32,000 nt of DNA from NCBI RefSeq assembly GCF_000012905.2, contig NC_007493.2:960001-992000 (forward strand), written 5' to 3'. Positions 12,770 to 29,270 of the stretch are shown piece by piece. The position numbers were made by a program, and so were the translations under genes. Each line of letters begins with the position of its first letter. The stretch's first letter is position 1. This DNA is from Cereibacter sphaeroides 2.4.1. GTDB taxonomy: Bacteria > Pseudomonadota > Alphaproteobacteria > Rhodobacterales > Rhodobacteraceae. The notes under the pieces are model-generated. The model worked only from the letters and a program-made list of their open reading frames with translations. It searched no databases and was not told where the DNA came from.

Positions 12770-12846
12770 CGGAGTGTAGCGCAGCCTGGTAGCGCGCCTG
12801 CTTTGGGAGCAGGATGTCGGGGGTTCGAATCCCTCCACTCCGACCA
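12770..12846 (+). tRNA. tRNA-Pro (anticodon UGG)
   Basis: 77-nt cloverleaf read by hand. Acceptor stem is CGGAGTG/CACTCCG and D-arm is GCGC-AGCCTGGTA-GCGC. Anticodon stem is CCTGC/GCAGG with loop TTTGGGA. T-arm is GGGGG-TTCGAAT-CCCTC, followed by discriminator A and an encoded CCA. Confidence 0.9.
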
Positions 12847-12847
12847 T
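12830..12847. repeat. attL core (tRNA-Pro 3' end)
   Basis: TCCCTCCACTCCGACCAT, identical to 29253-29270. Confidence 0.85.
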
Positions 12848-20888: not shown

Positions 20889-21303
20889 GGCTGCCCGCCT
20901 TTCGGATCGCCTTGCCGATGGCGCGCGACAGGCGGCTAAGTATCCTCGGCCGGGCGATCCGCCACGCCGGACGCGTGAAGGGTTGCGCCTCCATCGTCAC
21001 GGTGCCGAACTCGACAAGGTGCCCGTGGCGCATGGCGGGCGAGCCGACCGTGACCACGGCCTGATTGTCCGGGATGGTGCGCCGCCCGCCGTCGCTGGCA
21101 TAGGCGGGTGTCGTCTGGCCGGGTCCGGTGACGGCGATGCTGTCGCGCAAGGCGCCCGTGTCCACCGGGGCGAGGGCGCGCATCTTCGCGGCCACATCCT
21201 CGGCGGCCTTCACCAGAGCCGGGCGCAGCTCGGCCAGCACGTCGCCGGGGATCTGGTCGAGGCGCGCGGCCAAGCGGCGCGAGCTGTCAGAGGTTGCCGA
21301 CAT
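20881..21303 (-). CDS. HK97 gp10-family neck protein
   Basis: LRPALVKAAEDVAAKMRALAPVDTGALRDSI......HGHLVEFGT..MEAQPF is the HK97 gp10 family pattern. Confidence 0.75.
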   Translation of the reverse strand: MSATSDSSRRLAARLDQIPGDVLAELRPALVKAAEDVAAKMRALAPVDTGALRDSIAVTGPGQTTPAYASDGGRRTIPDNQAVVTVGSPAMRHGHLVEFGTVTMEAQPFTRPAWRIARPRILSRLSRAIGKAIRKAGSHA

Positions 21304-21598
21304 GGCCCGTCACCTGTTCCCGGAAAGGCGCCAGAAGATCGCGAACGCCGAACGGCACGGCCTCGGCAGAGACGCCGAAAGCAACAGCCTCACGCTGTTC
21401 ATAAAGATGCGCCGCCAGCATCAGCGCGGCTTCGACATGGGCAGGACATGCCGAGTTGAAAGCATCGCCGACATGCCCGGCAATCCATGCCTCGGCCACG
21501 GCCAGCTTGTGCGACATAAGATCCGCCTCGGCTATTGCCGTGTCAGGATCAAGGTTCAGTTGCGCCGTCAGCAGCGCGAGGGGAGACTGCGCAGCCAC
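21287..21598 (-). CDS. gp6-like head-tail connector protein
   Basis: 103 aa with a GTG start and GAGGT 7 nt upstream. LLTAQLNLDPDTA..EADL...L..AEAWI......A.......P.....A.LMLAAHLYE.RE is typical of phage gp6-like connectors. Confidence 0.65.
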   Translation of the reverse strand: MAAQSPLALLTAQLNLDPDTAIAEADLMSHKLAVAEAWIAGHVGDAFNSACPAHVEAALMLAAHLYEQREAVAFGVSAEAVPFGVRDLLAPFREQVTGHVGNL

Positions 21599-21612
21599 GG
21601 CGCTACCTCATA

Positions 21613-21625
21613 CGTTATAACATAA
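21613..21625. promoter_or_regulatory. AT-rich GTTAT-repeat motif copy 2 (GTTATAACATAAC)
   Basis: Exact reverse complement of 27315-27327. It lies 15-27 nt upstream of the gp6-like start and contains the 8-bp palindrome GTTATAAC. Confidence 0.35.
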
Positions 21626-21792
21626 CATAGATGTAGCACACTGATTCGGCCCGGAAAAGTTATTTCGGGCCTATCTTGCGCGGACCTCCCCCCGCCGGTC
21701 CCTAGATTAGTGCGAATCTCAGGCCACCGCCCCCGCGTGGGAAACGGCTTGTAGAAGGTGAGGACATAGGGAACTGTGTCGTTTAAGGTGGG

Positions 21793-23265
21793 ATGCTCGA
21801 TGGAGAGGAGCGAATTTTGAGAGTTTCAGAATATTACAAGCTCGGGCGCAACCAAGCTACATTAAAGTTCATAGATGTTGATATTAAAAACGATGCGCGC
21901 CTATTTGTGAATGCACGTGCAATCAGATTGCTGGAGTCGGAGTGGGGGGAGCATTGCGAGTATCTCCTGTCCAATTTTTTCCAAACGATTATTGACTCAA
22001 TTAGGGTCGGCGACGGGACAGCTGCGCTAACAGCCCTGCAAGCACTGCGCGAGCCAAATGAAACTCACTTGGGATTGTCTGCTGGCGAGTCTGACGGAAG
22101 AGGTCTGGGTCCCCAAAAGGCGTATCAAATCTGGAAATCATTGAAGCAAAGTAAGGCAGTGGAAACCGGCCTATTGAGTGATCTAGAGGACACGGTTCTT
22201 CTGGTGGACGGGGTTTCGGTGGATATTCTGTCGGATGTTGTTACAAACATAATCAGAGGCCCACTCATAACCTTTACTCAAGAAACGTGCGAGGAATACG
22301 GCATTCCCATGGAAAAAGGTGTGGCGTCTGGTCCGGTTTGGAACCCGGGCGCGAGATGTTGGGAAGAGGATTTTGTGAGCTTGCCTTTACCTGAAGGGGA
22401 GAAGTTAATACTGGTTCCGAAGTCAATCGTGCGGGTTGATGCGGATTATAAGGTCGGCCAGTATTATCGTCATTACGTATTGGAGTCCATGAAGATCGAT
22501 GAGATCGCTCGCAATAGTGAGCTAGTGTATACGATTAAATCAGGCGCAAGAAAGGGTGAGAGGACTGTCACCAAGACCAGCTTGGAGAAAAAATACGGAA
22601 GTCAACAAAAATCTATCTCAATCGATTACACGAATAAGCGGCCAGATCTTTTGGAGAAATACAAGAGGGATCATTCGGCTCCTACGCCAGCTCTCACACA
22701 TAGGCAAATCGCTGAGGCGCAAGGTTTGCAGCTTCCTGATTGGAAGGCCCTGCTTCAAGCTGTTACCAGTTTGGAGCCGGGAAGGAAGCAAGCATATCTC
22801 TACGAGGACGCCATAACGGATTTACTTTCCGCTCTTTTTCATCCGGTTCTCGTTGACCCGGAGAAGCAATCAGTTCTGCATGGTGGAATAAAAAGGGTCG
22901 ATCTGCGCTTTACCAATTATGCGCGGTCTGGGTTCTTTGAGTGGCTTTCTCGGCATTATTCGTGCTCATACATATTTGTCGAGTGCAAGAACTTTGGGGA
23001 GGAGCTGGGTAATCCAGAGATTGACCAAATCGCAATGCGGTTCTCAAAGGAGAGAGGCCAGTTTGGGATTGTGGTCTGCCGGAATGTCGAGAATGCGGAT
23101 CTTCTAGATCGACGGTGTAAGGCGGCGGCACAAGATGGACACGGGTTCGTTGTGGTCCTGTCAGACTCGGATCTCGGTCAATTGATTGAAGAGTCCAAGG
23201 AGGGCCTGCTTCAGACGTATGAGTTCCCAACGCTTAGAAGAAAGTTCAATCAACTAATTATGTGA
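21793..23265 (+). CDS. Unknown 490-aa protein with C-terminal PD-(D/E)xK restriction-endonuclease-like signature; candidate defence/conflict nuclease
   Basis: It is the only + strand gene in the element. It is visibly AT-rich with A/T-ending codons, against GC-rich flanks. RBS AAGGTGG lies before the ATG at 21793; an alternative is TTG at 21817 after GGAGAGGAG. The C-terminus has YEDAITDLL (helix E338), GIKRVDLRF (D370), YIFVECKNF (E397-x-K399) and then GIVVCRN. The N-terminal ~330 aa are unrecognised. Confidence 0.7.
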   Translation: MLDGEERILRVSEYYKLGRNQATLKFIDVDIKNDARLFVNARAIRLLESEWGEHCEYLLSNFFQTIIDSIRVGDGTAALTALQALREPNETHLGLSAGESDGRGLGPQKAYQIWKSLKQSKAVETGLLSDLEDTVLLVDGVSVDILSDVVTNIIRGPLITFTQETCEEYGIPMEKGVASGPVWNPGARCWEEDFVSLPLPEGEKLILVPKSIVRVDADYKVGQYYRHYVLESMKIDEIARNSELVYTIKSGARKGERTVTKTSLEKKYGSQQKSISIDYTNKRPDLLEKYKRDHSAPTPALTHRQIAEAQGLQLPDWKALLQAVTSLEPGRKQAYLYEDAITDLLSALFHPVLVDPEKQSVLHGGIKRVDLRFTNYARSGFFEWLSRHYSCSYIFVECKNFGEELGNPEIDQIAMRFSKERGQFGIVVCRNVENADLLDRRCKAAAQDGHGFVVVLSDSDLGQLIEESKEGLLQTYEFPTLRRKFNQLIM

Positions 23266-23600
23266 TTGTATCGCTCCTGCATCTGCTTCTGGCGGTCGTG
23301 GCAGGGTTTGCATAGGGCTTGCCAATTGGTGCGATCCCAGAACAGCGTCATGTCGCCCTTGTGCGGGATGACGTGATCGACCACGCCAGCGGGCGCACCG
23401 CAGAAGGCGCAGGTGGGGTGCTGGTGCAGGAATTCGGCGCGGGCCTTGCGCCACTCGTGGGTATAGCCGCGCTCGCGCGACGAGGGGCGCTTCTGGTCGA
23501 AGCGGGCCTTGCGCTCGCGGTCGCGCTGGATCTGGCAGGAACAGCGGGCGCCGTGCGGCACGAGCTGGCCGCAGGTGCAGAGGTGCGGGGGCCGGGGCAT
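23250..23600 (-). CDS. HNH endonuclease (phage packaging-associated type)
   Basis: Zinc-finger cysteines (CTCG...CSC, CAFCG, CKPCH) and the HNH core VDHVIPH....LFWDRTNWQALCKPCH. The 3' end overlaps the + strand ORF by 16 nt. Confidence 0.85.
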   Translation of the reverse strand: MPRPPHLCTCGQLVPHGARCSCQIQRDRERKARFDQKRPSSRERGYTHEWRKARAEFLHQHPTCAFCGAPAGVVDHVIPHKGDMTLFWDRTNWQALCKPCHDRQKQMQERYNHIIS

Positions 23601-27314: not shown

Positions 27315-27327
27315 GTTATGTTATAAC
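27315..27327. promoter_or_regulatory. AT-rich GTTAT-repeat motif copy 3 (GTTATGTTATAAC)
   Basis: It overlaps the integrase stop codon and lies 74-86 nt upstream of the portal start. It is the reverse complement of 21613-21625. Confidence 0.35.
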
Positions 27328-29133
27328 ATTAGCGAGGTGGTCCAAGTTCAGGCCGGGATACTGAATAGCTTCGATCAGCTTCACCCGTTGCTCAAGCATC
27401 CCCTGAGGCATGATCCCGTAGCGCCCGGTCATGCTGCCTTCGGTGTGGCCGAGGATGAAGCCGAACTCATTATCTAGGTAGCCAGCCCGGCGCAGCGCGT
27501 CGGCAGCACCGTGACGGAACGAGTAGAGGGACAATCCGCGACCTGACTTCAAACCGATGCGCGCGAGATACTTCCCGAACTCGCGGGAAAACTCGCTCAT
27601 CATCTGCCCGCGCTCGTTCCTCTTGGCGCCGGGGAAAAGTCGCTTGTCGCCAGCTTCAACGCGCTGCGAATGATAAGCGAGAAAGCCCAGGCGGATCAGC
27701 TCGGAGTGAACCGGGATCACGCGCATTGATCCAGCCGTCTTGACCTGTTTTCCTTCCTCGTGTGTCTCGCCCTCGGTCGTAATGTGAAAGATCCAGCGGC
27801 CGTGTTCCTGTCGAAGGTCGCTGGTCGCAAGTTGCGCAATCTCACCGGGGCGGGCGCCGGAATAGAGCATGATCAGCGGCACCCAGTAGCGATGATCGCG
27901 GATCAGGACCGGGCCGGGCTTCGAAATGTAGCGCCATGCTGCCTCGCTTTCGCACCCTGCGAACAGAGGTGAGCGGAAGAGGGTGTTCATCTGGTCGCTT
28001 GTGAAGGGCAGGGTCTTCGAGCCGCGTTCCTTTGGCAGCGCCATGCCCGAACAGGGATTGCTCGCGATGTAGCCGTTTGCCTCGGCCCACGAGCAGAACG
28101 CCGAGAGACTGGACAGGTAGCGGTTGACGGTGCGGTCTGACAGGACCGGCCGCTTCGCCTGCTCATTCGCTTCAACAATCTGCCGGATTGTCATTCCGCG
28201 AAACTCGGCGACCTCGGTTGCGCGCAGGGGATACTTGATCAGAAGCGCCTTCCACTCGCGGACGTGCTTCTTCGTGAGCTTGGACACGGGAAACGAGGGA
28301 CCGACCGTCTCCATGAAAACGCCGATGTCGCGACATGCTTCCTCGATCCTGCCCTTGGACACATTCCGGGGGTTCTCGGTTCGGAAGGCTTCGACGGCCT
28401 CGGCGATGCTCTCGCCCGGCGGCGCAACTTCCATCTCGGCGCGCTTCTCTGCGGTAGGGGGCTTCACCAGCGGGTCGCGTGGCTGGCCGGTGTAGTCGCC
28501 CCGGTCCCGCTCAAGCGTGCGTTCGAGGGCTTCGGCCTCGGCCCGCATCATGCGCCTCGCTAAGCTGATCCAGTCAGGAGTTCCACGTTCCACCAGAAGC
28601 CGGTTGCGGTTCAGGTAGTCGTCAACCTCGTGAGAGATCAATGCCGTCTCGCCCTTCACCAAATGCTCGCGCAGGTCGGCCAGCTTCGCCTTGCGAGTAT
28701 CCGAGGCGAGGGCAGGGGCCTGTTGCTTCACTTGTAGCTCAAGAGTCGCGTCGAGGATCGCCAGCGGCTCGGCGCTGGTAATCTCTCCACGGTCGGCGCG
28801 CCGGATCACGTCAGCCTCGGCGGCTGCAATCTCCGCCTCGCCCGGCAGCGTTGCCCGCTCGGCCTCGTCGCGGGTGAGGGCGGCCGTGTAGTGGTCCCAG
28901 ACTGCATGTTCGCGGTCAGCAGCGACAAGCGACCGTCTCGCGCGCAGGTCGTCAAACTCGCGCTGCCATGCGTCAAGCTGGGGGTAGAGGCGCCGCTTCG
29001 CCTCGGTTTCATCCTTCGTTCCGAGGGCCTTCACCAGCTCCTTCTTGCCCACGATGGCGATCAGGTCGAGGGGAACGCGGGTCCGGGCGTAGTAGGCGGC
29101 ACCCCGCCGCAAAAGATGACTAAGACGTGCCAT
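27316..29133 (-). CDS. Tyrosine-type site-specific integrase (long N-terminal extension)
   Basis: Catalytic-domain landmarks are LYSGARPGEIAQL (Arg), LYSFRHGAADAL (H-x-x-R), ILGH and MTGRYG (Tyr). The N-terminus LLRRGAAYYARTRVPLDL is typical of the DUF6538-type integrase N-domain. Confidence 0.9.
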   Translation of the reverse strand: MARLSHLLRRGAAYYARTRVPLDLIAIVGKKELVKALGTKDETEAKRRLYPQLDAWQREFDDLRARRSLVAADREHAVWDHYTAALTRDEAERATLPGEAEIAAAEADVIRRADRGEITSAEPLAILDATLELQVKQQAPALASDTRKAKLADLREHLVKGETALISHEVDDYLNRNRLLVERGTPDWISLARRMMRAEAEALERTLERDRGDYTGQPRDPLVKPPTAEKRAEMEVAPPGESIAEAVEAFRTENPRNVSKGRIEEACRDIGVFMETVGPSFPVSKLTKKHVREWKALLIKYPLRATEVAEFRGMTIRQIVEANEQAKRPVLSDRTVNRYLSSLSAFCSWAEANGYIASNPCSGMALPKERGSKTLPFTSDQMNTLFRSPLFAGCESEAAWRYISKPGPVLIRDHRYWVPLIMLYSGARPGEIAQLATSDLRQEHGRWIFHITTEGETHEEGKQVKTAGSMRVIPVHSELIRLGFLAYHSQRVEAGDKRLFPGAKRNERGQMMSEFSREFGKYLARIGLKSGRGLSLYSFRHGAADALRRAGYLDNEFGFILGHTEGSMTGRYGIMPQGMLEQRVKLIEAIQYPGLNLDHLANVIT

Positions 29134-29252: not shown

Positions 29253-29270
29253 TCCCTCCACTCCGACCAT
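29253..29270. repeat. attR core
   Basis: TCCCTCCACTCCGACCAT. The preceding element-side bases (GGGTTatgt) retain partial similarity to the tRNA T-arm (GGGTTcgaa). Confidence 0.85.

Follow-up and report, generated by a model that had tools for sequence, protein, structure and literature searches.

A DUF8370-nuclease gene in a cargo hotspot of an alphaproteobacterial phage-like element: a candidate defence nuclease of Cereibacter sphaeroides 2.4.1

The analysis reported here concerns a 32,000-nt stretch of the genome of Cereibacter (Rhodobacter) sphaeroides 2.4.1 (contig NC_007493.2, positions 960,001 to 992,000; hereafter the window, from whose first letter the coordinates of its features are counted), in which a 16.4-kb phage-like element, integrated at a tRNA-Pro gene, carries RSP_2356, a cargo gene assigned through the identical protein. 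We have established that this gene lies in a cargo hotspot between the HNH endonuclease gene and the gp6-like connector gene of the element, that its product has a two-domain architecture, with an N-terminal DUF8370 domain followed by a domain of the PD-(D/E)xK nuclease fold that retains conserved catalytic residues, and that it is accompanied by neither a conserved partner gene nor an adjacent methyltransferase. We therefore present the gene as a plausible single-gene phage-defence nuclease, and as a candidate only; the fuller proposal, in which a horizontally acquired, single-polypeptide, sensor-licensed nuclease in the HNH-gp6 hotspot would cut invader DNA for defence, appears to us about evenly balanced between right and wrong. 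The family to which the protein belongs is catalogued yet uncharacterized, and the novel points are an N-terminal domain without a structural match and a hotspot that had not previously been noted.

Domain architecture and family of the RSP_2356 protein

On its structural model the C-terminal third of the protein is a PD-(D/E)xK nuclease domain, for which cleavage activity is predicted. The full-length model, built with AlphaFold2 (AF2) on 45 homologues, is confident (pLDDT 87.8, pTM 0.87) and contains the canonical alpha-beta-beta-beta-alpha-beta core of the superfamily, laid out as alpha(323-341)-beta(345-350)-beta(363-367)-beta(385-391)-alpha(399-406)-beta(416-421), with D362 opening strand 2 and E389-C-K391 lying within strand 3 (residue numbers follow the 482-aa form of the protein and are 8 higher in the 490-aa form, where D362/E389/K391 become D370/E397/K399). 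Foldseek searches of the PDB returned FokI (E=2e-4, probability 0.99), Nt.BspD6I (5e-3), EcoT38I (0.06) and, with E-values of 0.1-1, VC1899, Can2 and Cap4, every listed match being a PD-(D/E)xK nuclease. D362, E389 and K391 are invariant in the 45 close homologues, and their conservation remains at least 90% among 44 divergent members (27-64% identity). An earlier reading of this DNA from its letters and open reading frames (ORFs), here called the sequence-only reading, had proposed the nuclease fold from the motifs YEDAITDLL, GIKRVDLRF, YIFVECKNF and GIVVCRN, all of which are present, and had picked out the same three residues as catalytic; both the fold, now seen in the predicted structure and its Foldseek matches, and the catalytic residues are supported by our results. 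The E...D...ExK arrangement that it described stands for D362, E389 and K391 but not for its first member, since the residue of the acidic helix, E330, varies in distant members. Its placing of the domain among Mrr-type enzymes did not survive, as the protein has no Mrr_cat match at E<=1; weak sub-threshold Mrr_cat matches occur in 8 of the 44 relatives (best E=0.0027), relatives also give weak matches to HSDR_N_2 and RRG7, and from these profiles the relationship to Mrr would be distant at best.

The closest structural matches of the model, FokI and Nt.BspD6I, are likewise built of several domains, the C-terminal one being a D...(D/E)xK cleavage domain with a single active site, but the global resemblance is slight (TM-score ~0.25, identity 10-12%), and the N-terminal 306 aa of the cargo protein are dissimilar to the FokI recognition domains, with no adjacent methyltransferase found. 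The Mrr-type type IV enzymes (Mrr_cat, PF04471) are also solitary nucleases of the same fold superfamily, and UniProt names the protein a 'Restriction endonuclease type IV Mrr domain-containing protein'; they carry a winged-helix Mrr_N domain, however, for which the cargo protein has no counterpart (no Pfam or Foldseek match of its N-terminal domain). Finally, the signalling-immunity effectors Cap4, Can2 and VC1899 (Card1-like) share the nuclease fold and the architecture of a sensor domain joined to a PD-(D/E)xK effector, but the similarity is marginal, and the cargo protein lacks a SAVED or CARF domain and has no cyclase or CRISPR neighbour.

The N-terminal domain, mostly helical with one beta-hairpin, was modelled alone over residues 1-306 with high confidence (AF2, pLDDT 90.8), and Foldseek found nothing credible for it in the PDB (best E=1.3) or in BFVD (best E=0.09). 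Together with the Pfam scan described below, this bears out the impression gained from the letters that the region has no recognizable relative. Its label, PF28123 (DUF8370), comes from precomputed annotation, in which the identical protein and every listed homologue bear it, and it can be assigned to the N-terminal domain because nuclease-less, N-only proteins of ~316 aa also carry it. The N-only proteins are found in Bacillaceae and Acinetobacter, among them examples on very small plasmids: one (L102:2500-3456, in our locus numbering) is encoded on a Bacillus cereus plasmid of 4.56 kb for which two genes are annotated, and another (L103:4980-5924) by a gene adjoining a RelE/ParE toxin on a 9.5-kb Acinetobacter baumannii plasmid. 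A set of polar residues, D26, E79, D125, D136, S139, D140, N144 and K202, is conserved in the fused and the N-only forms alike, which suggests, from conservation, a ligand pocket or an active site. In two further proteins, P0217 (751 aa) and P0242 (1144 aa), a domain of the nucleoside phosphorylase superfamily, PNP_UDP_1, stands C-terminal to the DUF8370-nuclease unit. The PNP_UDP_1 domain is used by ATP-degrading immune effectors.

The gene had been taken at first reading for a candidate undescribed system, and 'undescribed' has to be withdrawn: the protein is already known as RSP_2356, bears an Mrr name in UniProt, carries the DUF8370 label, matches PHROG 27295 and, in part, the PADLOC profile PDC-M36A, and belongs to a family of some 4000 clusters. 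The match to PHROG 27295 (function not assigned) is full-length, aa 9-489 aligning with profile positions 1-469 of 469 (E=6e-125, 418 bits). The family numbers 4003 clusters at 50% identity when recruited at E<=1e-3 and 806 at E<=1e-30, its members being mostly ~480 aa long and spread over Proteobacteria, Firmicutes, Actinobacteria, Acidobacteria and cyanobacteria. Profile scans of the protein with a Pfam copy that did not include the PF28123 model gave a spurious match to 5_3_exonuc_N alone (E=0.19), NCBIfam gave no match, and a sequence-profile search of the PDB returned 2l5q alone, at a non-significant E=0.054.

The PADLOC matches are partial, covering aa 10-236 with model PDLC04597 (E=1.9e-37, 127 bits) and aa 334-462 with model PDLC04598 (E=9e-17, 59 bits). 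PDC-M36 (Payne et al., bioRxiv 10.1101/2024.01.29.577857) is, like the gene studied here, a candidate by genomic association, and it is the PDC-M36A profile that was matched; it is, however, a three-gene cassette (FAM_01399>>FAM_00303>>FAM_00303) embedded in BREX, DISARM or type I restriction-modification loci, whereas the cargo gene is a single gene in a prophage-like slot. None of the neighbouring genes gave a PADLOC match, no PDC-M36 partner was detected among the other genes of the element, and a complete PDC-M36 system is ruled out by the incomplete cassette. PDC candidates other than PDC-M36 have had mixed outcomes on testing.

The HNH-gp6 junction and the setting of homologues

With the capsid protein of the element as query, a scan of a single genome from each species recovered 80 syntenic elements in Rhodobacterales and Hyphomicrobiales, and the gap between HNH and gp6 was measured in the 72 where positions could be given to both HNH and gp6 (or gp10). 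In these relatives, from other alphaproteobacterial species, it ranges from 162 to 5595 bp, the median being close to 790 bp. Slot content was analysed where the gap exceeded 850 bp, counting ORFs of at least 140 aa: the large slots have a GC content of 0.41-0.64 as against 0.55-0.68 in their flanks (0.01-0.20 lower), and 30 of the 68 ORFs that they hold lie on the opposite strand. These 68 ORFs form 48 clusters, most of which matched no Pfam family. Cargo of defence type includes GmrSD, a type II methyltransferase with a restriction enzyme (MTase_II/REase_II) and the PADLOC candidates PDC-S15, PDC-S33 and HEC-06, and the other named cargo includes Beta_protein, FRG, RelA_SpoT, NYN, Peptidase_M78 and an IS1595 transposase. 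Since the gap is variable in length and the large gaps are mostly low in GC and diverse in cargo, the junction is a cargo hotspot. The sequence-only reading, which had taken the position for an accessory slot, was right in this respect; its account of a structural operon interrupted by the gene needs qualification, for an opposite-strand insert does lie at the HNH-gp6 junction, but interruption at this point is not peculiar to the present element, the gap being variable across the element family.

The DUF8370 nuclease itself occurs in none of the 72 syntenic elements. On account of this absence we reject the reading that the gene belongs to the structural or lysogeny core of the element. In Paracoccus liaowanqingii, within the same type of element, a 74%-identical DUF8370 nuclease occupies the same slot and has a type IV restriction gene as its neighbour (L009:9028-9840), whose product is an SRA_ScoMcrA-HNH protein that matches the PADLOC model for type IV methyl-directed restriction with E=5e-18.

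That prophage and satellite hotspots hold defence genes is established (PMC9122126, PMC10085698), and the hotspots of P2-like phages, P4-like satellites and phage-inducible chromosomal islands (PICI) likewise present a fixed backbone position with diverse, often low-GC, defence-bearing cargo. Set against those hotspots, the HNH-gp6 slot differs in its alphaproteobacterial tRNA-Pro backbone, its unusual gene order and its site between a packaging HNH gene and a connector gene, and is on that comparison a candidate defence hotspot.

Two side observations concern the slots of other elements. One of the 48 clusters is a same-strand family of 17 members (L047:12450-13184, L049:12447-13172, L074:12751-13494 and 14 other loci), several of which start directly after HNH; it is absent from the element in the C. 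sphaeroides window and is probably the source of 9 PADLOC 'mad1' matches. In addition, locus L046 (CP059262.1, a metagenome-assembled genome labelled Exiguobacterium profundum) is a Firmicute-labelled record with an alphaproteobacterial element and a flank GC of 0.66, and is probably mislabelled or contaminated.

Outside the element family, homologues of the cargo gene are found in varied company. The Phyllobacterium homologue adjoins a TIR_2 protein and has AbiJ_NTD5 nearby; that of Tabrizicola shares a small integrase island with genes of the MazG-like, HNH_2 and resolvase kinds; one on a metagenomic contig has an adjacent integrase, with a NotI restriction-modification pair and a NACHT protein on the same contig; one on a Bacillus mycoides plasmid is flanked by a TOPRIM and UvrD pair on one side and by an integrase and McrBC on the other; and two further loci lie amid hypothetical genes with resolvase or HTH genes near. 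Association of the homologues with defence genes is thus recurrent and not universal, and no recurrent partner gene was found across the contexts examined. There is no methyltransferase in the slot or the element and none adjacent in the 9 other homologue contexts, the only methylase seen being the member of the NotI pair on the metagenomic contig (L101), separate from the homologue and ~3 kb from it. The reading as a classical type II or IIS restriction-modification nuclease was rejected, as there is no adjacent methyltransferase. The gene has a lower GC content (0.43-0.53) than the host flanks in 14 of 14 loci examined, and it behaves as a mobile, self-contained unit.

The cargo gene and the element in the window

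Read from its ATG, the cargo gene spans 21793..23265 on the + strand and encodes 490 aa. Its true start is likely TTG 21817, with a product of 482 aa, and we favour this start because the position of the Shine-Dalgarno sequence and the N-termini of homologues fit it: GGAGAGGAG lies at 21802-21810, 6 nt 5' of the TTG, and the listed homologues are nearly all 475-495 aa long with the N-terminus MRVSEYY. The database start codons disagree (WP_011337424.1, ATG, 490 aa; ABA78514.2, TTG, 482 aa). The gene was noted earlier as having its own ribosome-binding site, and the Shine-Dalgarno sequence ahead of TTG 21817 agrees with this; the range then given for it, 21599-23275, does contain the gene but also includes the upstream intergenic region and 10 nt past the stop. 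The Rfam scan found no RNA family upstream of the gene, the tRNA being the only RNA detected.

In composition the gene stands apart from its surroundings, with a GC content of 0.48 (slot 0.49) against 0.64 for the element, 0.47-0.52 in four 400-nt windows over the gene against 0.64-0.73 in flanking windows, and a third-codon-position GC of 0.52 against 0.80-0.93 in every neighbouring gene. The AT-rich contrast remarked on earlier is therefore real, although the accompanying estimate by eye, in the mid-40s %, was slightly low. The conclusion drawn from it, recent acquisition, holds only in part: the composition is foreign, but all 23 contigs read with an identical gp6 have one arrangement throughout, with the cargo gene present, and because 23 of 23 share this gene-bearing arrangement the acquisition is not demonstrably recent within the species. 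A copy of the element without the cargo gene was sought among these 23 contigs and none was found, so that polymorphism within the species was not seen.

The 16.4-kb extent proposed for the element is confirmed by an 18-nt direct repeat at its two boundaries (Table 1), and Pfam confirms both of the neighbours attributed to the gene, HNH and the gp6-like connector. Independent gene calls on public contigs also bear out that it is the only + strand gene of the element, the sole opposite-strand gene between integrase and tRNA. On the minus strand the order runs from the integrase through the portal, a 106-aa tail-tube/TAC-like protein, a protease-capsid fusion, a 198-aa unknown and HNH to the slot, continues beyond it with gp6, a gp10-like protein, the gp17 tail completion protein, a head completion protein, TerS, TerL and the tape measure, and ends, 3' of the tape measure, with four small unknowns. 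The cargo gene and HNH run towards each other and overlap by 16 nt at their stops (23250-23265), and because of this convergent overlap the last five HNH codons fall in low-GC, cargo-type sequence. A fixed and unusual order of integrase, portal, protease-capsid, HNH, connectors, TerS, TerL and tape measure is common to the element family, which extends over at least 80 species of Rhodobacterales and Hyphomicrobiales. Profile annotation of the genes of the element recognized no replication, lysis, repressor, major tail or baseplate genes, and judging by its gene content the element may be a satellite, gene transfer agent (GTA)-like or defective.

Table 1. Coordinates of the cargo gene, its coding segments, and the flanking and boundary features of the element in the window
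Feature	Position	Strand	Basis or remark
tRNA-Pro	12770-12846		Rfam
att repeat, 3' end of tRNA-Pro, one element boundary	12830..12847	+	
gp6-like head-tail connector, left slot anchor	21287..21598	-	Pfam Phage_connect_1 E=5.7e-4; syntenic in relatives
Cargo slot between gp6-like connector and HNH	21599..23249		1651 nt, GC 0.49
Upstream non-coding region of cargo gene	21599..21816	+	contains Shine-Dalgarno GGAGAGGAG
Cargo gene RSP_2356, DUF8370 + PD-(D/E)xK nuclease	21817..23265 (alternative ATG 21793)	+	
N-terminal DUF8370 domain, residues 1-306	21817..22734	+	mostly helical, one beta-hairpin
C-terminal PD-(D/E)xK nuclease domain, residues ~309-482	22741..23262	+	AF2 model + Foldseek
Codon of putative catalytic D362	22900..22902	+	conservation; coordinates verified
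Codons E389-C390-K391, ExK of nuclease motif	22981..22989	+	conservation
HNH endonuclease, right slot anchor	23250..23600	-	Pfam HNH; PHROG 2323
DUF6538-type tyrosine integrase	27316-29133	-	
Second 18-nt att repeat TCCCTCCACTCCGACCAT, other boundary, adjoins integrase	29253..29270	+	

A possible role in defence and its alternatives

We suggest that the region upstream of the gene would drive its expression in the lysogen, antisense to the structural genes, and that DUF8370, as a separate module, would most likely sense or bind an invader-specific cue and license the nuclease. The C-terminal FokI/Mrr-like PD-(D/E)xK domain, with D362, E389 and K391, would then be the DNA-cleaving effector, cutting DNA upon the entry of a competing phage or mobile element, with protection of the host and of the resident element as the expected outcome. 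From a FokI-like domain one would predict double-strand cuts that depend on dimerization.

Several observations weigh against this proposal. PADLOC would call no system at the cargo locus, because only a partial match to the A component was obtained and the cassette partners are absent. A tblastn search of 50,697 GenBank phage records gave no match and IMG/VR yielded 6 loci only, and three of the homologues examined are solitary among housekeeping genes. No sigma-70 consensus match was found upstream of the cargo gene, where promoter and terminator scans stayed at chance level; E330 of the acidic helix is not conserved in distant family members; and no paper or experiment was found in the literature on DUF8370/PF28123, PDC-M36, RSP_2354-2358, PHROG 27295 or the protein accessions. 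Moreover, because nuclease-less forms occur on tiny plasmids, DUF8370 may act autonomously, and its function may possibly be enzymatic rather than that of a sensor.

One alternative is that the protein performs classical type IV modification-dependent restriction (cf. Mrr, MspJI and GmrSD), with DUF8370 binding a modified base and the nuclease cutting nearby, independently of any infection trigger. Consistent with this, the nuclease is solitary and free of a methyltransferase in every context examined, it bears the Mrr-domain name in UniProt and has relatives with weak Mrr_cat matches, it shares the Paracoccus slot with a type IV enzyme while GmrSD sits in the slot of other elements, and the strictly conserved polar set of the N-terminal domain could form a base-binding pocket. 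Yet Mrr_cat is not matched by the cargo protein at E<=1, and by Pfam and Foldseek the N-terminal domain is unlike the modified-DNA readers SRA, winged-helix Mrr_N and DUF262. Considering also that the PNP_UDP_1 fusions and the nuclease-less N-only proteins better fit a sensor/effector or enzymatic logic, we regard type IV restriction as rather unlikely; a sensor-licensed nuclease is favoured over it because the fusions look effector-like and the nuclease-less forms imply a function of the N-terminal domain in its own right.

The mobility of the gene raises the question of whether it is a selfish, self-mobilizing nuclease that, in the manner of a homing endonuclease, cuts empty sites without benefit to host or element, as single-gene, integrase-free insertions between housekeeping genes, a GC content lower than that of every host and insertion between conserved phage genes would allow. 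Homing endonucleases, however, are not typically 482 aa long, nor do they typically carry a large and conserved additional domain; no LAGLIDADG, GIY-YIG or HNH homing family is matched; the insertion sites of homologues vary without recurrence; and a repeat search around the insert found no target-site duplication and no flanking inverted repeats. Since many unrelated cargo genes are found in this one slot, it is the site and not the gene that explains the position, and we think a homing-type activity very improbable. Only slightly less credible would be a role in the life cycle of the element, whether in degrading the genome of a helper phage or of the host on induction or in processing DNA for packaging. 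Satellites encode anti-helper nucleases, and the element, which has head, connector, terminase and tape-measure genes, may depend on a helper because no replication, lysis or baseplate genes are recognizable in it; such a role is made less likely by the absence of the gene from 72 of 72 syntenic relatives, and the foreign composition, the opposite orientation and the location of most homologues outside such elements also speak against it. The least probable reading, to which we attach very little weight, is that of a non-defence nuclease of repair or recombination, or of an inert remnant of past transfer. Some homologues do lie in housekeeping neighbourhoods, but the gene has an intact ORF, a public collection has the identical protein indexed in 111 blocks, core repair genes do not show such low GC or so patchy and mobile a distribution, and conservation of the catalytic residues in divergent members of a family of ~4000 clusters makes an inert remnant less likely.

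Finally, beyond the defensive role suggested here for RSP_2356, we put forward a broader and more tentative proposal, which we judge somewhat more likely to be wrong than right: that DUF8370 may be an unrecognized sensor or enzymatic fold of a very large single-protein immune family, deployed alone on small plasmids, with a nuclease, or with a nuclease and a PNP-type effector, and that the HNH-gp6 junction may be a new defence hotspot in widespread alphaproteobacterial 16-kb phage-like elements, minable for further systems. C. sphaeroides 2.4.1 is a genetically tractable model organism and as such suits the functional study of the gene, and the HNH-gp6 junction looks like a ready-made site for discovery. 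If confirmed, a defensive role would provide a function for a large orphan family (DUF8370, PHROG 27295, ~4000 clusters) and would add a new sensing domain to those of the single-protein nuclease defences.

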